Positions 14,809-36,124 of a DNA stretch of 64,000 bases are shown here, one piece after another; within the stretch, counting starts at the first letter, position 1, and each line of letters starts with the position of its first letter. The notes below the pieces were generated by a model. The model ran no database searches and was not told the origin of the DNA. It saw nothing but the letters and a program-made list of their open reading frames with translations. The DNA is from Solirubrobacterales bacterium. GTDB lineage: Bacteria; Actinomycetota; Thermoleophilia; Solirubrobacterales; 70-9. The stretch lies in NCBI GenBank assembly GCA_035995325.1, contig DASYKN010000055.1, forward strand, positions 13,753-77,752. The letters are read 5' to 3'. Made by a program: the position numbers and the translations under genes.

Positions 14809-14923
14809 AATGAGGGATAGGACGCGATGGTTCAAGTTTCCCCTGGAGGGCGAAGTTGCCCGTTTGCAGGGTGGGTGAGTGGAGCTAGGCGGATTCGAAC
14901 CGCCGACCTCCTGGGTGCGATCC
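14809..14923. repeat. Repeat copy A: about 70 nt of flank F plus a 44-nt 3' fragment of tRNA-Ala(CGC)
   Basis: aatgagggatagga.gcgatggttcaagtttcccctggag.gcgaagttgcccgtttgcagg..gtgggtgag followed by tggagctaggcggattcgaaccgccgacctcctgggtgcgatcc. The latter is identical to 36052-36095 of the intact tRNA gene. Confidence 0.9.
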
Positions 14924-15019
14924 GCGGCGGCGGCCAGGGCTACCTTCGCAATAAGTGGCCTATTTGCAGGGGCTTACCAGCGGGTTGAAGGTCCGTCGAG
15001 CAGCGTTTGAGCCTGTCGG

Positions 15020-15082
15020 ATATGCACGGATATGCGGCGATGTGATCCGAGTCGGGAACTTTTGGCGAGAAGTTCCCGAAAT
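15020..15082. repeat. Conserved cassette-proximal block with an interrupted palindrome
   Basis: atatgcacggatatgcggcgatgtgatccgagTCGGGAACTTttggcgagAAGTTCCCGAaat is nearly identical to 30199-30261. Confidence 0.85.
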
Positions 15083-15363
15083 GACGCGGCGCGGTTCAAG
15101 GCCCATAAACGGAAAGCGCGACGACTCACTGCCCTAAGCCTGCAACGGCGAATTCCATGCTCCCATTGTGTTCACTAGGGACATTGCACGGTGCAAGTCC
15201 ACCGGCCGTCTAAGACGATCGATCCGACCAGTCTAAGAACCTCAGTATGGTCGAAGACCATGCTGAATCCTTCCCCGCCGATGCAATCTATGGCCGTGGA
15301 TGCTGATGGAACTCGGATGCTCGAGCCGTGACAATTTTTTCACGTCTTAGAGAGGAGAGTTGA

Positions 15364-16509
15364 GTGTCGATCAGAGCTACCTCCACGGACGAACTCGCCC
15401 GTCAGGTCGAGGCTAAGGTGGAACTGCCGTCGGGTGGCGCCATCGTCCCGGTGCCCGAGTTTGCCGCCGCCTCTTCCACCCCATGCGATTCCACCGATCT
15501 GCTGAGCTGGATGGGGTGGATGACGGCGGGGCCGCCCACCTTGGCGGCGGAGGTGCTCCGCAGCGCTGGCTACTGGGCGTGGGTTCGCTATCGATGGGCC
15601 TTGGAGGACGCACATGAAGTCGTCAGGCCGACCGCCGCCGCGCGATCGATAAGACAGCACACCCGCTCAATGTTTAGCGAGGCGGTCGGAGTCGGCACGG
15701 CTGGCTACGTCGGCTGCCTGCGCCTTGCCCCGTCGGGATCTTTGGCTGTGGTCAACTTGGACGACACGATTGACCCGCTGCTGACGAGCAGAGTCATCCG
15801 TCGGCGGTTCGGCTCAGGAAAGAGGCAACCCGACTATTTGATCATCGGGGGGCTTGACAGAGGCCGGGTGGAACTCCTAGCGATCGAGTGCAAAGGCACC
15901 GTCAAGAACGAGAGGACCGCGATCGGTCAGCTTGTTGCAGGAGTTCGGCAGGTCCTGGGGGTCGAATCCGACCTGCCCATGCGGAGGGTGGTCTTCGCCA
16001 CCTCGCTGGATCTCGATGAAAAGGAACCGGCCGTGAGGTGCCACGCAATCGAGGTCAAGGCCGAAGACAGATTCCAAGGCGGGCTCGATATCGAAGTTGC
16101 GCGTGAAGCGGTACGGGACGCCGCCTTGATCCGGGCGCTTCGCTGTGCCGGTCGCTACGACGATGCCGAGCGTACGCGCCAAGGCTATGTAGCGGACTGG
16201 TTCGAGCCCCAAGAGACCTTTCGCATCGCCGACAGGCCGATGGTCGGCCGGGGAGTCGAGCTCCTCTCCGTCGACGCCCACCTTCGGGCCGAGGTGGGTG
16301 TCGACCTTGAGCTCCTGCGAGCGCTGGCGGCTCCTCGATCTGAGCGACAGGCTCTTCTTGAGCCGCTGGAAGGTGAGATTCCAGATCAAGAGAGGGACCG
16401 GCGCATCGATAGTCCGGAGCGAGTCCAGCAGGAAACTCTGATGAGGGACGGCCTCGGCATCCGTTTCGAGCGGCGGGGCCGGGATTCCGGCGAAGAGAGA
16501 TTTCAGTAG
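15364..16509 (+). CDS. Hypothetical protein with a PD-(D/E)xK nuclease-like core
   Basis: GTG start preceded by a GAGGAG RBS. Motif KRQPDYLIIGG...VELLAIECKGT (D ... E-x-K). No other domain recognised. Confidence 0.6.
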   Translation: MSIRATSTDELARQVEAKVELPSGGAIVPVPEFAAASSTPCDSTDLLSWMGWMTAGPPTLAAEVLRSAGYWAWVRYRWALEDAHEVVRPTAAARSIRQHTRSMFSEAVGVGTAGYVGCLRLAPSGSLAVVNLDDTIDPLLTSRVIRRRFGSGKRQPDYLIIGGLDRGRVELLAIECKGTVKNERTAIGQLVAGVRQVLGVESDLPMRRVVFATSLDLDEKEPAVRCHAIEVKAEDRFQGGLDIEVAREAVRDAALIRALRCAGRYDDAERTRQGYVADWFEPQETFRIADRPMVGRGVELLSVDAHLRAEVGVDLELLRALAAPRSERQALLEPLEGEIPDQERDRRIDSPERVQQETLMRDGLGIRFERRGRDSGEERFQ

Positions 16510-16516
16510 GGACCTC

Positions 16517-17035
16517 TTGGCCGGCGCCGCCACCTACTTGGTTGAGTTCGACGGTGCGCTCGTCAGGCGCGGATTCTGGCTCTACGTACTTCAGGCCACC
16601 GTCCCGGACGGAGAGCAGTTTCTCTACGTAGGCAGGACGGGCGACAGTTCGTCCTTCAACGCGCAATCCGCCTACAACCGGCTCGGCAAACACCTTGGCG
16701 CCAACACCACGACGAACCAGATGCGCAGGCACCTGACGAAGAAGGAGTTAGAACCGGAGGCCTGCCTTTACCGCTTCGTTGCCTACGGGCCCGTCCTTGC
16801 AGAGGCAGCAACCAAAGACCAAGGCAGTCACTATCCGCTCCGGGACAAGGTGGCGGCGATGGAGAGGGAACTCGCAGTCCTACTAGAGAGAGCAGGCTAC
16901 TTGGTGCTCAACGAAGTCAGGTCAAAAAAATTGCTGGACGAGAACGCATTTCGACCCGTGGTCGCGGCCATCTCCGAGTACTTCCCCAAACTTGCCGAGT
17001 ACTGTTCTCCGCCGGAACAGGACGTGACTCTGTGA
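16517..17035 (+). CDS. Hypothetical protein with GIY-YIG nuclease-like motifs
   Basis: FWLYVLQ...EQFLYVGRTGD...YNRLGKH...MERELA...LNEV fits the GIY / YIG / R / E / N spacing. It starts 8 nt after the previous gene, so an operon is likely. Confidence 0.5.
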   Translation: MAGAATYLVEFDGALVRRGFWLYVLQATVPDGEQFLYVGRTGDSSSFNAQSAYNRLGKHLGANTTTNQMRRHLTKKELEPEACLYRFVAYGPVLAEAATKDQGSHYPLRDKVAAMERELAVLLERAGYLVLNEVRSKKLLDENAFRPVVAAISEYFPKLAEYCSPPEQDVTL

Positions 17036-17091: not shown

Positions 17092-17156
17092 GATGGTTCA
17101 AGTTTTCCCCTGGAGAGCGAAGTTGCCCGTTTTGCAGGGGGTGTGGGTGAGTGGAG
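17092..17156. repeat. Repeat copy B: 60 nt of flank F plus only the last 5-6 nt of the tRNA 3' end
   Basis: gatggttcaagttttcccctggagagcgaagttgcccgttttgcagggggtgtgggtgagtggag. After this the sequence diverges. Confidence 0.85.
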
Positions 17157-29925: not shown

Positions 29926-30099
29926 ACGGGAATCGGCGTCAATCCCCGCATATCCAGGCCATTTCGGGAACTAGTTCCCGAAATGCGGGGATAGGAGGCG
30001 ATGGTTAAGTTTCCCCCTGGAGAGCGAAGCTGCCCGTTTGCAGGGGGTGTGGGTAAGTGGAGCTAGGCGGATTCGAACCGCCGACCTCCTGGGTGCGAT
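29926..30099. repeat. Repeat copy C: full flank F (132 nt) plus a 42-nt 3' fragment of tRNA-Ala(CGC)
   Basis: Near-identical by eye to 35919-36093. Contains the 24-bp perfect palindrome ATTTCGGGAACTAGTTCCCGAAAT at 29961-29984. Confidence 0.9.
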
Positions 30100-30198
30100 T
30101 CAAGGTGGCAGGCTAGGATTTCTACTTCAATAAAGCGCTTCTTTACAGGGAATTTCTAGTCCTATGCCGGGAGCATCGAGCGACGATTCTCGCGCCAA

Positions 30199-30261
30199 AT
30201 ATGCGCGGATATGCGGCGATGTGATCCGAGTCGGGAACTTCTAGCGAGAAGTTCCCGAAAT
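30199..30261. repeat. Conserved cassette-proximal block with an interrupted palindrome
   Basis: atatgcgcggatatgcggcgatgtgatccgagTCGGGAACTTctagcgagAAGTTCCCGAaat. This is the paralogue of 15020-15082. Confidence 0.85.
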
Positions 30262-30332
30262 CGCAGAGGCCGGTTCAAGACTTCCGAGCGGCCGGCGAGA
30301 GTCGACTCAGCCTGTCGCGCTCTTACGCATGA

Positions 30333-32690
30333 CTAAACAACGCCGTCGGACTCCCCGGTGAGCAGCCACTCCCGCAGGTCCACCAAGAAGGCGTAGTCCT
30401 CTTCGCTGATCGCGCCTCCGTGGGAGACTTCGTTTCGGATCGGGTTGAGACGCTTGATCCAGTCCAGGCGGTTTTTCCAGGTACCGGAGAGATCCTCGTC
30501 TTCGGGTCGCGTGTAGCGAGCGGCGAAGCGGCTTTCCCAGACCGCGTTGGTGCAGGACTTGATCACCTCGTAGTAGTCGACGATGTACATCATGTCCCAG
30601 CCGCCCACCTGTTCTGACGGGTCGAGGTCGAGGTTCTTCTCAATCGCCCGCTCGGCGCTCTCCTTGCGGACCTTGCGCGGGATCCCGAGGCGTTCCCAGT
30701 CTTTGCCGTGCTCGTCCTCGAGCCGCTCGCGGATGTCCTTCTTGAAGAAGGCCTCAAGGTCGCCGACGATCTCCCGGGCCTGGTTGGTGTACTGCTTGTC
30801 CTGGGCTTTTTCCCACTCATCGAGGCCCGGGGCTTTGAAGTTGGGCCGCGCCGCGCGCACCGCCTGCTGGAGCTTTCGATAGTACTTCGAGCCGGCGCCC
30901 GAGCCGTAGTTCGTGCGGTATTCGACGCCCTCCTCGCGGCTCAGCCCCTCGAGGTGGTCTACCAGCGAGTCCAGGTAGGGGCGACAGGCCTCGACCATTT
31001 CCCCGGTGCTGGTGCTGAGTGGATTAACTCCCTCGTCCTCGATCACGGTTTCGACGATGTCGCTGAGCACCCGCAGGAGCGCCTCAACCCCGTTATTCAT
31101 GAAGACGAAGCCGCCCTCGGCGCTGCCGTACTGCCATTGCGCGGGCAGCCCCTCTTTGAGGATCTCGAAGCTGGCCTCGAGGAACGGCGTTAGGAGGTCG
31201 GCGGTCGGCTGGTTGTCACCTGCGTAGAAGGTGCCCACCTTTTTCGCACCCGCTTTCGTGAAGCTGCCGATGAAGTTTCCGCGCCGCAGACCGTTGTCGA
31301 TCGCGTCGATCGTGATCGACCTCGTGTGCGTTTTGGCGTTCTCACCGATGATCATCCGGTCAAAGAGCGGCGAGGACTTCTGCTCGCCGAGGTGCTGGGC
31401 GATCCTCAGGCGCAGGGCCTTTGCGCGCTGGCGGTAGTCGTCTGAAGCCCAGAGCAGGTCCGAGTTCAGCGTGTTCCGCAGGTTCTTGGGAACCGCCTGC
31501 TGGTTCTCGTTGATCTGCATGAAGAGGCGAACCTGCTCCTCTCTCGGCAGGTCGACGAAGGCGACGACCGGGACCAGGTCGGTCTCGGTCCGGCTTGAGT
31601 CGGCGTACCCGTAGAGGCGATGCTGTCCGTCGATGACGTAGGCGGCCCGATAGGTCTGCGGCAGGTGCAGGAGCCCAATTTTCGAGGGCCCGGGCGATTT
31701 CGGAGCGAGGTCGAACTGCAGCCCACCTCTCCTTTTCCCGGTTTCGATGTTGAGGATGATCGAGTTCGGGAAGAAGCCACCCCCCTCGACGAACTCGGCG
31801 ACCTTTCTCAGGCGCGATTTCTTGATCAGCCGCTGATAGGTGGGCATCAGCGCGCTGTTGGCTTGGTTTCGGTGCAGCACGTAGGACATCTTCAGCAGGC
31901 GCGCGGGCTCGATCGCGAAGGAGAAGTAGGTGTAACCGCCCATCGAGCCGCGGATCGCCGGCACTTCCGGCTCGAGGTTCGGGATCCTCGTCCCGGCGAA
32001 CAACGCGCCGAGCAGCTGGTATTTCGCGGCGGCCCCCAGGTGCTCTGCCAGCCGCAGGTAGTACTCGACCGTGTCCTCGTCGACGTGGAAGATTTGGGCG
32101 CCCTCGACACGCTCTTTGACCTGCGCGGAGAGGGTGTAGTTGTTAGTCGCGAGCAGGAAGCGGATCTTGTGGTCGGGGTACTCTTCTTTAACCCGCCGGA
32201 CGATCCCCTGCCGCCGTCCCGAGATCGCCTCGACCTCCTTCTTGAACTGCCCGGGGCGGATCGTCTCAGAGGATTTGCACTCGATCAGCAGCACTGACTC
32301 CTCATCGGCCGCGAATACGTCGATTTGCTGCTTTGCGCTCGCCGCCGCCCCGTAGCTCAGCTTGAAAGAGCCGTCGCGATTCAGGTGCGGGAACTGCAGC
32401 TGCGCGCACATCGCCCAGACGCGGTCCTCGAAGGCTCGCTCGTGGCGCTTCTCGCGCCGCATTTTGGTCCGGATTTTCAGCTCCTTCTCGACAACCCAGC
32501 CGTCGGCTTCGTAGGCCTCGACCTTCGCCTTCGAAATCGTCTCGAAGGCGTGGGGCAGAAGCCGCTTCCGCGTCTCGCCTTTGATTTTGTTGAACGCCAG
32601 GAGGTGATCGCTGATTGCCTCCCCGGGAACCCAGATCGCCTTCGTCTCCGTTTTCGCGTTTGCCTCCGCTTCCGTCTCGGCCCTCGCCAT
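30333..32690 (-). CDS. Three-domain protein: N-terminal PD-(D/E)xK nuclease-like, central DGQHR (DndB/ParB-like) and C-terminal HEPN (Rx4H) domains
   Basis: QQIDVFAADEESVLLIECKSS (D...ExK). AYVIDGQHRLYGY and FMQINENQQAV (DGQHR/DndB signatures). C-terminal LNPIRNEVSHGG (HEPN R-x4-H). The start codon shares one base with the MTase stop (TGATG). Confidence 0.75.
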   Translation of the reverse strand: MARAETEAEANAKTETKAIWVPGEAISDHLLAFNKIKGETRKRLLPHAFETISKAKVEAYEADGWVVEKELKIRTKMRREKRHERAFEDRVWAMCAQLQFPHLNRDGSFKLSYGAAASAKQQIDVFAADEESVLLIECKSSETIRPGQFKKEVEAISGRRQGIVRRVKEEYPDHKIRFLLATNNYTLSAQVKERVEGAQIFHVDEDTVEYYLRLAEHLGAAAKYQLLGALFAGTRIPNLEPEVPAIRGSMGGYTYFSFAIEPARLLKMSYVLHRNQANSALMPTYQRLIKKSRLRKVAEFVEGGGFFPNSIILNIETGKRRGGLQFDLAPKSPGPSKIGLLHLPQTYRAAYVIDGQHRLYGYADSSRTETDLVPVVAFVDLPREEQVRLFMQINENQQAVPKNLRNTLNSDLLWASDDYRQRAKALRLRIAQHLGEQKSSPLFDRMIIGENAKTHTRSITIDAIDNGLRRGNFIGSFTKAGAKKVGTFYAGDNQPTADLLTPFLEASFEILKEGLPAQWQYGSAEGGFVFMNNGVEALLRVLSDIVETVIEDEGVNPLSTSTGEMVEACRPYLDSLVDHLEGLSREEGVEYRTNYGSGAGSKYYRKLQQAVRAARPNFKAPGLDEWEKAQDKQYTNQAREIVGDLEAFFKKDIRERLEDEHGKDWERLGIPRKVRKESAERAIEKNLDLDPSEQVGGWDMMYIVDYYEVIKSCTNAVWESRFAARYTRPEDEDLSGTWKNRLDWIKRLNPIRNEVSHGGAISEEDYAFLVDLREWLLTGESDGVV

Positions 32691-33532
32691 CAGCCGGCCG
32701 TCTCCAGGTTCGTGAAAAGAAGCTCTTTCGCGCTGCCCCGTATTGCGTTCGCTCCCCCCACCGAGTTGCGTCGGCTGGTCTTGATCACCGAGTCACCCTT
32801 GTCGAACAGCTCGATGATCGAGTCGTGCGCCGCGTTGGCGAGGATGTAGTGGGCGTCGCGCTCCTTGATCTCATCAACTAGCTTGCTGAGGCGGCGCTGG
32901 TCCTCAAAGGAAAAAAGCCGCTGGTTGTACTTCACGAATCCGTTTTCATTGTGGGCGACCGTGTAGGGGGGGTCGAGGAAGACCAAGTCCCCGGCGCCTA
33001 CCCGGTCGATGCACTTGGCGAAGTCGCTGGCTTTCAGGGTGGCCTGCTCCAGTCGAGAGGCCACCGCCCGCAGCTGCTCTGCGGTAGGGATGTGGGCGAT
33101 CCGCTCGCCGCCAAAGGGCACGTTGTAGGTCCCTGCCAGGTTGACGCGGTAGATGCCGTTGAACGAGGTGTGGTTCAGGTAGAGGAAGCGAGCGGCGCTC
33201 TCGATCAACCCGCCCGGAACCGATGCCCTGACCTTGTAGTAGGTCTCTTCATCGCGGGCGTACGCCCGGGCTTTGTTGGCGACCCGGGTCGGGTGATCCC
33301 TGATCGCCTCGAAGGCGGAGATCAGCTCCACGTTGGTATCGCTGAGGTGAGCTTTCGAGAACGGGCCCAGAGCCAGAAAAACCGAGGCGCCGCCCAGGAA
33401 GGGCTCGTGATAGGCGGCGATCTCGGTCTCGCCGACCAGCTTTCTTAGCTTCGGGATCAGCCACCGCTTGCCGCCGACCCACCGCAGCGGCGAGGCCACC
33501 GACGCAGTCGTCTCGCTCGCCCCCGTCGTCAC
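32690..33532 (-). CDS. Dam-like (D12 class) N6-adenine DNA methyltransferase
   Basis: PLRWVGGKRWL, HEPFLGGASVF (motif I) and VFLDPPYTV (motif IV, DPPY). GTG start at 33532 chosen inside ORF 32690..33637 (alternative at 33541). Confidence 0.85.
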   Translation of the reverse strand: MTTGASETTASVASPLRWVGGKRWLIPKLRKLVGETEIAAYHEPFLGGASVFLALGPFSKAHLSDTNVELISAFEAIRDHPTRVANKARAYARDEETYYKVRASVPGGLIESAARFLYLNHTSFNGIYRVNLAGTYNVPFGGERIAHIPTAEQLRAVASRLEQATLKASDFAKCIDRVGAGDLVFLDPPYTVAHNENGFVKYNQRLFSFEDQRRLSKLVDEIKERDAHYILANAAHDSIIELFDKGDSVIKTSRRNSVGGANAIRGSAKELLFTNLETAG

Positions 33533-33645
33533 CGGTGCAACCCTATCGTCGTGAGTTGTACGTCGTAAGTGCCGTCCATTACTCAGATGGAACCGCGTAC
33601 GTGGCAAACGCGGCCCCGGTGAGTGACAGGGAGGCACCGAGGATC

Positions 33646-33762
33646 ATCGACGGTCGTTGGCTGCTCGGCCCGCCGGCAGGCGATGGTGGGATGTCCGAGG
33701 TCTACCGTGCCACCGACATCGATCACGAGTACGGGCCGCTGGCGCTGAAGCTCCTGCCGGCC
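33646..33762 (+). pseudogene. Ser/Thr protein kinase N-terminal fragment (remnant)
   Basis: IDGRWLLGPPAGDGGMSEVYRATDIDHEYGPLALKLLPA resembles a Gly-rich loop plus the VAIK-type lysine region. No catalytic-loop motifs follow in any frame. Confidence 0.3.
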
Positions 33763-33929
33763 CCGCGTCAGGAGGGACCGGTGGGCGGTCAAGGAGCTGG
33801 TCGATGGGGTCTGCCACTTCGTCGAGCTCGCGGAGCCAGTCGACTAGGCCGAGCGGAGTGGTCGTCGCGGCCATCGCGACGCCTTCCGGGATGATCTGCC
33901 GTTAATTGGTTCATCCAAGGATGAAGACA

Positions 33930-34019
33930 AGGCATTCCGGCGTCAATCGTGAAGCCGTCTTTTGCGGGAGGCTTGAGTGGAGCTAGGCGGATTCGAACCG
34001 CCGACCTCCTGGGTGCGAT
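33930..34019. repeat. Repeat copy D: internally deleted flank F (about 48 nt) plus a 42-nt tRNA-Ala(CGC) 3' fragment
   Basis: ggcattccggcgtcaatcg...gaagccgtcttttgcgggaggcttgag followed by tggagctaggcggattcgaaccgccgacctcctgggtgcgat. Confidence 0.85.
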
Positions 34020-34231
34020 TCGGGTGGCGTCTAGGAACTTCCTCATCGCCCTGATGATCGGGCGCGACGACGATCCACTTCTAGCAACGCTGCCAGGGAT
34101 CGGACGCTGGTATGTGGACGTCGCTCGCCCGTGGGTCTGTTGAGACTTCCCGCAAACAGGGGGTCGTCCGCTCAGATCTAGATTATCCAGGCGCTACCTT
34201 TCGTCCTGTGACGAGGCTAAGATACGAACAT

Positions 34232-35137
34232 ATGTTCGATAAAGAGACGCTTGTGAGCACTAGGGAGCGCGCGGCGATACTCGCGCTGATGGCGCGGCGG
34301 AAAGTCGAGTGGAACCGTCTCGCCGGCGCCATCGAGGAGGCGGGAAGCGCCCTCGCCTTGCTCGGAAAGATGGACGCAAGTCAAGACGCCCGTCTGTTCG
34401 AGGTTGAAACAGCCCAGGTGACCCTGGATCAGCTCGAGGAACGCGTGATCTCCTACGAACACGAAGGCATCCGGCTGATAACCGTCCTCGATGCCAGCTA
34501 TCCGATGAATCTGCGGATGGTCCACGATCGGCCCCCGGCACTCTTTGTTCGAGGCGAGCTGAGTCCAGCCGACGAGCGCTCTGCAGCGGTGGTCGGCAGT
34601 CGCAAAGCCTCACCGGAGGGGCTCGAAAAGGCCTCCGAGATCGTGCGAGATCTCGTTGCCCATGACTACGTCGTCTTCAGTGGTCTTGCCGCTGGCATAG
34701 ATACCGCCGCTCATGAGGCCGCCTTGGCGGCGGGGGGGCGCACGGTGGCAGTCATCGGCACCGGCCTGCGACACCACTTCCCGAAGCAGAACGCGGATCT
34801 GCAGGATCGACTTTGCCGGGAGAGCGCGGTCGTTTCCCAGTTCTGGCCGGGTCAAGAACCGCGGCGCTGGACGTTTCCCCAGAGGAACGCCGTGATGTCT
34901 GGTCTGGCCCGCGCCACCATCGTCGTTGAGGCCGGTAACAAGAGTGGGGCGCGCATGCAGGCTCGGTTGGCGATCGAGCACGGACGACCTGTCTTCCTGC
35001 TGCGCTCGCTATTGCGCCATCAGTGGGCACAGACGTACGCCAGTGAGCGGCCCGGTACCTATGTCGTGGAGACGGGCGAAGAGATTTTGCGGCACCTTGA
35101 GCGGCTTTACGCCGACGAGCTCGTCCTCACCGCTTAA
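34232..35137 (+). CDS. DprA/Smf-like (SLOG superfamily) protein
   Basis: AVVGSRKASPEGLEKA...VVFSGLAAGIDTAAHEAAL...TVAVIGTGL...FPQRNAVMSGLARATIVVEAGNKSGA is the DprA Rossmann core. Start at the ATG at 34232. Confidence 0.8.
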   Translation: MFDKETLVSTRERAAILALMARRKVEWNRLAGAIEEAGSALALLGKMDASQDARLFEVETAQVTLDQLEERVISYEHEGIRLITVLDASYPMNLRMVHDRPPALFVRGELSPADERSAAVVGSRKASPEGLEKASEIVRDLVAHDYVVFSGLAAGIDTAAHEAALAAGGRTVAVIGTGLRHHFPKQNADLQDRLCRESAVVSQFWPGQEPRRWTFPQRNAVMSGLARATIVVEAGNKSGARMQARLAIEHGRPVFLLRSLLRHQWAQTYASERPGTYVVETGEEILRHLERLYADELVLTA

Positions 35138-35147
35138 TCTCTAGCCG

Positions 35148-35897
35148 ATGGCGGTTGGGGTCGATGAGGCCAGCGAGGCGTATGAGCGCGCGATGCGCAA
35201 CATTGCCACTGTCGGTCCAGGCATTTGCCGGATCTGCCGGACTTTCATAGATCCTGGATATGACACCTGCTACCCGTGCGGCTTTGAGCCCGACAACCTC
35301 GCTGCGGTGGTCCCGATCACCTACAGCGAGAACCTTGGACAGGTGCATACGGCGCTTCGCAACTACAAGGATGGCGAGAGCAACGCAATCCGCCGACATG
35401 CTGCCGTTCGGCTCGCGGCGATCCTCTGGCGCTTTCTCCGCGAGCACGAGGCCTGTGTTGCAGGTGCCGCAGGCGTGGACAAATTCGACCTCGTCACGAT
35501 CATCCCATCCAGCAGCCCACAGCGAGACGAGCACTCCGCCTTCCGTGAGTTGACCAGTTGGATCGAGCCCGCCAGCTCACGGATGCGCCGGACTCTGGAG
35601 CCGACTGGCAAGGTCGAAGAGAGAGGGTTTGATCCCGACCGTTTCAGTTCCACCACTGAGCTACCTGGCAAGTCTGTGCTGCTCCTTGACGATACCTGGA
35701 CTACTGGCGGCCATGCGCGGTCTGCCTCTTACTCTCTACTCGCAGCCGGTGCCGCCACCGTCTCGCTGGTAGTGGTCGGCCGCCATGTCAACGGTGACTA
35801 CGAACCAGCTAAAGGCAGTGGCGAGAGCTGCACCGATCTCCTCGATGCGCTTCCCGAGGACTTCGATTGGGCCACTTGCGCCGTTCACGCCACTTAG
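35148..35897 (+). CDS. ComF-like phosphoribosyltransferase-fold protein with an N-terminal zinc finger
   Basis: CRICRTFIDPGYDTCYPCG zinc finger. PRPP-loop-like VLLLDDTWTTGGHARSA. Starts 11 nt after the dprA-like stop. Confidence 0.75.
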   Translation: MAVGVDEASEAYERAMRNIATVGPGICRICRTFIDPGYDTCYPCGFEPDNLAAVVPITYSENLGQVHTALRNYKDGESNAIRRHAAVRLAAILWRFLREHEACVAGAAGVDKFDLVTIIPSSSPQRDEHSAFRELTSWIEPASSRMRRTLEPTGKVEERGFDPDRFSSTTELPGKSVLLLDDTWTTGGHARSASYSLLAAGAATVSLVVVGRHVNGDYEPAKGSGESCTDLLDALPEDFDWATCAVHAT

Positions 35898-35918: not shown

Positions 35919-36051
35919 GGCGGAATCGGCGTCAATCCCCGCGTATCCAGGCCATTTCGGGAACTAGTTCCCGAAATGAGGGGGATAGGAGGCGATGGTT
36001 CAAGTTCCCCCTGGAGAGCGAAGTTGCCCGTTTGCAGGGGGTGTCGGTGAG
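35919..36051. repeat. Flank F copy E, directly abutting the 3' end of the intact tRNA-Ala(CGC)
   Basis: Near-identical by eye to 29926-30057. Palindrome ATTTCGGGAACTAGTTCCCGAAAT at 35954-35977. Confidence 0.9.
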
Positions 36052-36124
36052 TGGAGCTAGGCGGATTCGAACCGCCGACCTCCTGGGTGCGATCCAGGCG
36101 CTCTGCCAGCTGAGCTATAGCCCC
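36052..36124 (-). tRNA. tRNA-Ala (anticodon CGC)
   Basis: The reverse complement is GGGGCTATAGCTCAGCTGGCAGAGCGCCTGGATCGCACCCAGGAGGTCGGCGGTTCGAATCCGCCTAGCTCCA. It folds as a cloverleaf with a G3:U70 pair, anticodon loop AUCGCAC and a GTTCGAATC T-loop. Confidence 0.95.

Follow-up and report, generated by a model that had tools for sequence, protein, structure and literature searches.

What does a bacterium gain from a protein that carries a DNase-like domain, a DGQHR domain and an RNase-like domain in a single chain, and why should such a protein be encoded at the very end of an adenine methyltransferase gene? Both questions are raised by a locus in the 64,000-nucleotide stretch of Solirubrobacterales DNA analysed here (henceforth the window), to which an earlier note, made from the sequence alone, had drawn attention. 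The three-domain protein (henceforth DG3) has 785 residues and is encoded at 30333..32690 on the minus strand, directly behind the gene for a Dam/DpnM-like D12-class N6-adenine DNA methyltransferase of 280 residues (32690..33532, minus strand). The methyltransferase stop codon and the DG3 start codon have one base in common in the sequence TGATG on the coding strand (32688..32692, minus strand), exactly as the note had claimed, and every peptide motif that it had listed is present at the residues given: IDVFAADEESVLLIECKSS (residues 123-141), VIDGQHRLYGY (352-362), QINENQQAV (392-400) and IRNEVSHGG (751-759) in DG3, and FLGGASVF (at residue 45) and DPPY (at residue 187) in the methyltransferase. 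The two genes are apparently co-transcribed and co-translated. The DG3 open reading frame (ORF) is not fortuitous, since it has more than 2,500 homologues that are full length at about 770 residues. The methyltransferase ORF in its longest form begins in frame at a GTG codon at 33637 and would encode 315 residues; we prefer the start at 33532 because it gives the same length as the 843-nucleotide gene in a 96%-identical locus (L001).

We consider it somewhat probable that the two genes constitute a self-contained, horizontally mobile, modification-protected defence module resembling a restriction-modification (R-M) system. This reading is based on the domains of DG3, its linkage to methyltransferases, the mobility of the pair, the Shosta system and other defence genes found next to it, the scarcity of full-length copies in collections of phages and viruses, the pattern in which one or the other of its two active sites is retained, and the precedent of SspE and DndI.

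Domain organization of DG3

The three modules that the note had assigned to the single DG3 chain all hold up, albeit with unequal strength, the DGQHR domain being better supported than the PD-(D/E)xK and HEPN domains. An AlphaFold2 model of DG3 built on 140 homologues reached a mean predicted local distance difference test (pLDDT) score of 93.8 and a predicted template modelling score of 0.84. The central domain, of ParB-Srx fold with a helical extension, spans residues ~242-620 (30831..31967, minus strand) and includes the DGQHR motif itself at 31617-31631 (minus strand). As judged by sequence profiles, its assignment to the DGQHR/DndB-type ParB fold is certain: it matches TIGR03187 at 1e-42 (146.8 bits against a cut-off of 58.85) and Pfam DndB (PF14072) at 1.6e-11 (44.4 bits against 29.1), both above the curated cut-offs, and PADLOC DpdB at 5.8e-18. 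Among the 140 diverse DG3 members in which we counted conservation and motif loss, D354, G355, Q356 and R358 never vary, H357 is found in all but one (139 of 140), and Q397, in the QxNxxQ helix downstream of the motif, is likewise invariant. Searched with Foldseek against the PDB, the DG3 model also lists ParB-N 5k5d_B and PadC; a profile search of PDB sequences with the central domain returned zero relatives of solved structure, and no helix-turn-helix domain was detected in the Pfam scan.

The N-terminal domain (residues ~30-232; 31995..32603, minus strand) is well supported as a PD-(D/E)xK nuclease fold, in agreement with the restriction-endonuclease-like core that the note had proposed. 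On its own it just passes the Pfam Hjc cut-off (22.0 bits against 21.1), the full-length protein scoring 17.9 and hence below it. When the N-terminal domains of 30 diverse DG3 members were searched, 15 matched Hjc (best 2.1e-6), eight Card1_endonuc and seven NERD. The top PDB matches of the DG3 model in Foldseek were the nuclease domains of Cdn1/Card1/VC1899, NucS/EndoMS, AF1548, McrC and XisH, with Cdn1 9u49_A at 4.3e-4 and a probability of 1.0, and a profile search of PDB sequences with the N-terminal sub-alignment returned Hjc at E = 0.21 and, spuriously, a lectin repeat. The candidate catalytic residues form an E...D...ExK signature, composed of E88 (32427-32429), D124 (32319-32321) and E137-x-K139 (32274-32282), all on the minus strand.

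The C-terminal domain (residues ~623-777; 30360..30824, minus strand) is supported as a putative Swt1-type HEPN domain by family-level profiles and by the R752-x4-H757 motif (R752-NEVS-H757; 30420-30437, minus strand) that the note had recognized. HEPN_Swt1 is matched at E <= 0.01 by 38 of 66 diverse DG3 C-termini, most strongly at 7e-8, and P0033, a homologue of 68% identity, carries a precomputed match to the same family (PF18731). The isolated domain is modelled as all-helical with a pLDDT of 94.4, and a profile search of PDB sequences with the HEPN sub-alignment returned only HepS 9oij, at E = 0.31 and over the motif. The HEPN call is thus one of profiles and motif, not of structure, because Foldseek gave no significant match.

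Linkage of DG3 to adenine methyltransferases

The pairing with a methyltransferase is a property of the family and not of the window alone. We surveyed the neighbourhoods of the 80 best genome loci, three of which are cut at a contig end and uninformative. In 63 of the 77 informative loci a methyltransferase of the window type lies directly upstream on the same strand; in six a more divergent D12 methyltransferase adjoins DG3; in five DG3 sits in a block with a DpnM-like methyltransferase, DpnII and an N6_N4 methylase; in two the methyltransferase is divergently transcribed, and in one it lies 4 kb from DG3. All told, a D12 methyltransferase adjoins DG3 in 76 of 77 informative loci, which substantiates the pairing in the neighbourhoods of homologues, and apart from the methyltransferase the 80 best loci have zero conserved neighbours. 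The junction in the 63 same-strand loci is a 4-nucleotide overlap in 29 and a 1-nucleotide overlap in nine. The pairwise distance matrix of DG3 correlates with that of the methyltransferase (r = 0.63, Mantel p = 0.001); methyltransferase and nuclease genes thus adjoin and are co-inherited, as is characteristic of type II R-M systems. In two more distant loci on viral contigs the methyltransferase is located downstream of DG3. When we sampled ten large genes flanking DG3 elsewhere, six had matches to defence models of PADLOC (GmrSD-like, SNF2/DrmD-like, HsdR and methylase).

The five block-type loci (L050, L054, L060, L063 and L069) all belong to Bacteroidota, and their DG3 is placed inside a complete DpnII-type cassette comprising a DpnM-like methyltransferase, DpnII (Pfam 9.4e-96), DG3 and the N6_N4 methylase. 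We had expected that DG3 would have lost its DNase site in these DpnII-containing loci, and found both sites intact there. Since these loci possess a DpnII endonuclease, it would be too simple to call DG3 "the" restriction enzyme of its pair.

A different partnership is seen in three loci with radical-SAM-linked DG3 (L081 7278-11418, L082 6371-10163 and L085 8213-9448), which are found on plasmids of Alphaproteobacteria (pNL1 and one from Agrobacterium) and on one contig of IMG/VR. In two of the three, the uncharacterised radical-SAM protein is joined by a GHKL/HSP90-like ATPase and a small DGQHR protein of DndB-like type, and this gene set may constitute an undescribed modification module.

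Two minor observations concern the surroundings of DG3 elsewhere. An extra short DndB-like DGQHR gene (~370-390 residues) occurs near DG3 in some Bacteroidota and Ignavibacteriales loci (L032 8893-10074, L066 8915-10105 and L053 1551-2651). On the Agrobacterium plasmid, a protein with a PIN_8 domain (1e-25) and a GHKL ATPase are encoded upstream of DG3 (L082 206-3528), maybe as another defence pair.

Complementary retention of two active sites

Conservation of the two candidate active sites is high and incomplete across the 140 members: E88 is kept in 86%, D124 in 96%, E137 in 86%, K139 in 79%, R752 in 71% and H757 in 68%. Both the DNase and the HEPN motif are kept in 64 members, the DNase motif only in 43 and the HEPN motif only in 30, leaving three members with neither. 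The "neither" class is smaller than the ~11 members expected under independence (Fisher p = 6e-4, kinship ignored), and it falls to a single member under a looser definition of the motifs. On a neighbour-joining tree, parsimony requires ~16 state changes for each of the two traits. HEPN-only loci of the Nocardia/Tsukamurella type and DNase-only loci of the Clostridia type all retain the methyltransferase, while DG3 of the window has both sites intact.

Because lineages retain one nuclease or the other, either can serve alone, and the pattern is most simply read as a single sensor or switch that cannot be spared, coupled to two nuclease outputs that can stand in for each other. The complementary retention of the two active sites is new with the present analysis.

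Mobility and distribution of the module

Both genes lie within a 6-kb stretch of 61-65% G+C surrounded by DNA of ~70% G+C, and comparison with relatives delimits a discrete mobile unit at 30319..33565, consisting of the two genes and ~15-35 nucleotides on each side. This segment, 92-96% identical in nucleotide sequence, is all that four relatives (L001, L002, L003 and L027) have in common with the window, the flanking DNA being unrelated. The 3.25-kb two-gene unit moves between genomes alone.

Three repeats of the 3' end of a tRNA-Ala(CGC) gene delimit two tandem cassettes. The intact tRNA gene (36051..36124, minus strand; found with ARAGORN) is the anchor of the island and contains the third repeat copy (36048-36098), while the distal direct repeat (30054..30104, repeat family D3) forms the outer boundary of the DG3 cassette and the middle one (33974..34024, same family) parts it from the neighbouring cassette. 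A longer duplication of 175 nucleotides (29929-30102 and 35922-36096) also takes in DNA downstream of the tRNA. A 77%-identical module in another genome (L004) likewise has a tRNA-Ala(cgc) gene on one side and a repeated copy of the tRNA 3' end on the other, there without a Shosta system, and other relatives have other tRNA genes within a few kb of the module. An integrase was sought as an explanation for the tRNA repeats, and no ORF of such size was found between 30104 and 36048.

The neighbouring cassette, which is not part of the module, encodes a Shosta system (34112..35897, plus strand) composed of the DprA-like ShosA (34112-35137; PADLOC 5.6e-68, Pfam DNA_processg_A 9.5e-62) and the PRTase-like ShosT (35148-35897; PADLOC 2.2e-9).

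DG3 is widespread. The more than 2,500 homologues were counted among the candidates scored from a 90%-clustered collection, and a 50%-clustered library gave 2,017 matches, of which 495 lie below 1e-30. The homologues are almost all 750-790 residues long, and their alignments cover the whole chain down to ~30% identity. At least 509 loci with a DG3 relative are present in species-representative genomes, the phyla including Actinomycetota, Bacteroidota, Bacillota, Pseudomonadota, Chloroflexota and others; the closest matches, at 94-97% amino-acid identity, are in metagenome-assembled genomes of Solirubrobacterales/Thermoleophilia. By contrast, full-length DG3 is nearly absent from phage records and rare in IMG/VR (five copies in 2.9 million contigs), and there are only five full-length matches in 72,556 plasmid records. 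In one Solirubrobacterales locus (L008 5974-7905; also P0093) DG3 is shortened to 643 residues and lacks the HEPN region, possibly by frameshift or decay.

The methyltransferase and its predicted specificity

The D12-class N6-adenine methyltransferase named in the note is recognized in concert by Pfam MethyltransfD12 (4.2e-39), TIGR00571 dam (4.7e-54) and PADLOC MTase_II (5.7e-81). Among proteins of solved structure it comes closest to DpnM (2dpm, 2.8e-39) and E. coli Dam (4e-26), which both act on GATC, and the Dam contact positions R124, N120 and P134 are kept in the alignment. On account of these relatives and the three kept contact residues, the predicted specificity of the methyltransferase is likely GATC. 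The number of GATC sites in the window (621 observed against 587 expected) is uninformative on specificity. We also considered whether the pair might be PD-Lambda-5 and rejected this identity: the methyltransferase matches PD-Lambda-5_B at 1.6e-16, far more weakly than MTase_II, and DG3 has no PADLOC match to PD-Lambda-5_A, though both A and B are required.

Relation to known systems

Closest to DG3 in logic are SspE and DndI, in which a ParB-like NTPase with a D-G-Q-Q-R motif senses a modification of the DNA; the state of modification governs the NTPase and, by way of it, DNA binding or cleavage by the fused nuclease (PMC11662687, PMC13251355). As in DG3, a single chain joins a ParB/Srx-fold domain with a D-G-Q-x-R motif to a nuclease domain and is paired with a DNA-modification module. 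However, the ParB domain of SspE and DndI belongs to the DUF262 clade and that of DG3 to the DndB/DGQHR clade, their nuclease is of the HNH/DUF1524 type where DG3 has PD-(D/E)xK and HEPN domains, and their partner makes phosphorothioate whereas that of DG3 is a Dam-type N6-methyladenine (m6A) methylase. Neither DUF262 nor HNH is matched in DG3 by Pfam, NCBIfam or PADLOC models. The resemblance of DG3 to SspE, DndI and GmrSD is functional and architectural only.

With DndB and DpdB, DG3 shares the DGQHR family (TIGR03187, PF14072) and the tie to DNA-modification loci, and a DndB-like protein binds ATP and GTP (bioRxiv 10.1101/2025.10.10.680097). These proteins, however, are single-domain proteins of ~350 residues on the modification side, to which DG3 adds two nuclease domains. 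DG3 is not DndB or DpdB proper, since its scores against the equivalog models are far below the cut-offs (DpdB NF041060, 57.8 against 300; DGQHR_dnd_1, 81.3 against 450) and no dnd or dpd genes were found in the cassette or nearby among the ORFs of the window searched with Pfam. The likeness to DpnII-type cassettes (DpnM, DpnA and DpnII) resides in the methyltransferase, which is most similar to DpnM, whereas the window has no DpnII-family endonuclease or second methylase and DG3 is unrelated to DpnII.

The anticodon nucleases PrrC/EcoprrI and RloC are likewise HEPN-related RNases embedded in R-M loci, where they form a second defence line. PrrC, a separate protein linked to an ABC-ATPase, is kept silent by a Type I enzyme; in DG3, by contrast, the putative RNase domain is fused to DNA-side domains, with a methylase as the sole partner. 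A survey of HEPN proteins (PMC3710099, Anantharaman et al. 2013) likewise proposes HEPN RNases as second-line effectors in R-M loci and lists operons that combine HEPN genes with genes for a ParB nuclease and a methylase, and its Table 1 enters a Swt1-like HEPN domain fused to ParB (Saro_3948, "mostly active"). A second survey (PMC3632139, Makarova et al. 2013) describes fusions of DGQHR and DUF262 domains to PD-(D/E)xK and HEPN domains. Such short in-silico mentions, dating from 2013, were the only ones that the literature searches gave. The label "mostly active" in the tabulated entry matches the 68-71% conservation of the HEPN motif in the DG3 family. These are one-line entries, however, and the accessible portions of the surveys do not mention an N-terminal PD-(D/E)xK domain, near-obligate pairing with Dam or complementary loss of sites. 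A full-length DG3 homologue of 31% identity is located on plasmid pNL1 of N. aromaticivorans; that Saro_3948 is the pNL1 gene SARO_RS17535 is not confirmed, and Saro_3948 is absent from the supplement of PMC3710099.

Scanned with PADLOC, DG3 matched no restriction endonuclease model at E <= 0.1, the only matches being DpdB and a weak one to the Csx1 "ARF+Nuclease" model. PADLOC v2 holds no named or candidate defence system for DG3 and NCBIfam no specific model, the NCBI name for proteins of this type being only "DGQHR domain-containing protein". On the points on which the earlier note had staked its proposal, then, the modules have profile support, the homologues are linked to methyltransferases, and searches of PADLOC v2, NCBIfam and the literature gave no named system. 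We class the DG3 module as a widespread variant of the modification-linked ParB-NTPase nuclease effectors.

Proposed function and alternatives

How might such a module work? In the defence reading, the Dam/DpnM-like enzyme would methylate host adenines, probably at GATC, and this mark would restrain the DG3 effector. The DGQHR domain would act as a nucleoside triphosphate (NTP)-binding and hydrolysing switch that, by analogy to SspE and DndI, reads or relays the modification state and gates the nucleases. The PD-(D/E)xK domain, whose fold and motifs are observed, would bind and cut DNA, and the Swt1-type HEPN domain would be a second effector that cuts RNA in an abortive or backup response. 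Unmethylated invading DNA would provoke DNA cleavage, RNA cleavage or both, and methylated self DNA would be spared. The note had left open whether the system is modification-protected or modification-dependent: the former fits the logic of the operon, whereas for the latter the host DNA itself would be the target.

We extend this model tentatively, and hold the extension as a whole to be rather improbable, to the proposal that DG3 represents a new class of NTP-gated restriction effector, in which a DndB-type ParB fold reads modification and drives either DNA cleavage or HEPN RNA cleavage, with evolution toggling between the two by inactivating one site, and which in some lineages has been re-paired with the radical-SAM/small DGQHR/GHKL module, implying an undescribed DNA modification.

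Several points weigh against the defence reading. The DG3 score for HEPN_Swt1 is below the Pfam gathering threshold of 27.5, both for the isolated domain (22.1 bits, 1.9e-4) and at full length (15.5), and Foldseek found no PDB match to the isolated HEPN model at E < 2, Csm6 appearing only at E = 9.6. The GATC specificity is deduced from the closest solved relatives and three kept Dam contact residues only, reading of the methyl mark by DG3 is an argument from analogy, and the p value for complementary loss comes without phylogenetic correction. A DpnII endonuclease is present beside DG3 in five loci, and distant DG3 members (28-31% identity) adjoin a radical-SAM gene instead of a methyltransferase. 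Lastly, searches of open-access text and of databases of stated dates gave no experimental work on the DG3 architecture, in line with the note, though a recent paper available by subscription only could be missed.

The main rival, improbable in our view, is guard-type abortive infection. DG3 would monitor the methylation of the cell's own or newly replicated DNA and would kill or arrest the cell when methylation fails, be it through S-adenosylmethionine depletion by a phage, inhibition of the methylase or a flood of unmethylated DNA; the HEPN RNase would be the main weapon and the PD-(D/E)xK domain chiefly a reader of DNA. PrrC, which guards EcoprrI, is a precedent. The 30 of 140 representatives that lost the DNase residues and kept HEPN, in loci that retain the methyltransferase, are in keeping with a guard, as are the five loci that already hold a bona fide DpnII for the same kind of methylase and the proposal, in PMC3710099, that HEPN domains in R-M operons are suicide or backup effectors. 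Yet the 43 members that lost the HEPN motif keep the DNase site alone, so that RNA cleavage cannot be the universal output, and in DG3 of the window both sites are intact. Alternatively, the pair could be a selfish addiction cassette acting by post-segregational killing, with the methylase as antidote and the dual nuclease as toxin, whose main effect would be to stabilise its carrier island or plasmid rather than to stop phages. Type II R-M systems are known to act in this manner, and a tightly packed two-gene unit that moves alone between genomes, is located in tRNA-linked islands and plasmids, and has the methylase gene first with overlapping stop and start codons would suit such a role. We nonetheless regard it as unlikely, given that the unit is repeatedly found among other defence genes and is rare on plasmids (the five full-length matches noted above), and addiction is not exclusive of defence.

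Very unlikely, in our estimation, is a housekeeping or regulatory function, whether as a DndB-like regulator of the methylase or as a methyl-directed repair nuclease (MutH/NucS-like) that uses Dam marks for strand choice. DndB has indeed been described as repressing, in an ATP-dependent manner, the modification operon to which it belongs (PMC4507180, PMC10853773), and the NucS/EndoMS mismatch nucleases are among the Foldseek matches. But the distribution of the module is sporadic and horizontally transferred, it lies in a low-GC island and its neighbours are defence genes; moreover, a repair role has no place for a conserved HEPN RNase module, and the Pfam scan detected no helix-turn-helix domain. 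We attach hardly any credence to a Type IV-like, methylation-dependent enzyme attacking m6A DNA, the reading least compatible with the structure of the operon. Dependence on modification is found in many ParB-fold nucleases, GmrSD and BrxU among them (PMC4619093); however, with an adenine methylase as partner in 76 of 77 loci such an activity would target the host's own DNA, and DG3 coexists with DpnII, whose self-protection needs GATC methylation.

If the defence reading is true, a common system (at least 509 species-representative loci in many phyla) has gone unreported by current defence-finding tools, and the principle of a modification-sensing ParB-NTPase reaches beyond phosphorothioate, as in SspE and DndI, to ordinary adenine methylation. 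The family would also provide a natural experiment on the wiring of one sensor to a DNA-cutting or an RNA-cutting output. The pattern of complementary loss yields direct predictions for mutants, and the compact size of two genes in 3.25 kb eases testing.

Additional features of the island

Between the mobile unit and the middle repeat lie ~400 nucleotides (33566-33974) that are absent from the DNA shared with close relatives. An ORF of 119 residues at 33535-33894 (plus strand) appeared kinase-like by eye and was dropped, as it has no Pfam match.

A second low-GC island in the window is bounded by the same tRNA-Ala-3'-like repeat and flank (14809-15100 and 17092-17156). Its ORFs (15364-16509 and 16517-17035) have no Pfam match and are possibly another unknown cargo. 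Finally, the palindrome CGGGAAC(N0-12)GTTCCCG occurs four times in the window against 0.03 expected (15053-15078, 29965-29980, 30232-30257 and 35958-35973), each copy within ~150 nucleotides of a tRNA-repeat boundary. Since it lacks a T-run, the palindrome does not qualify as an obvious terminator, and it may be a protein-binding or recombination site.

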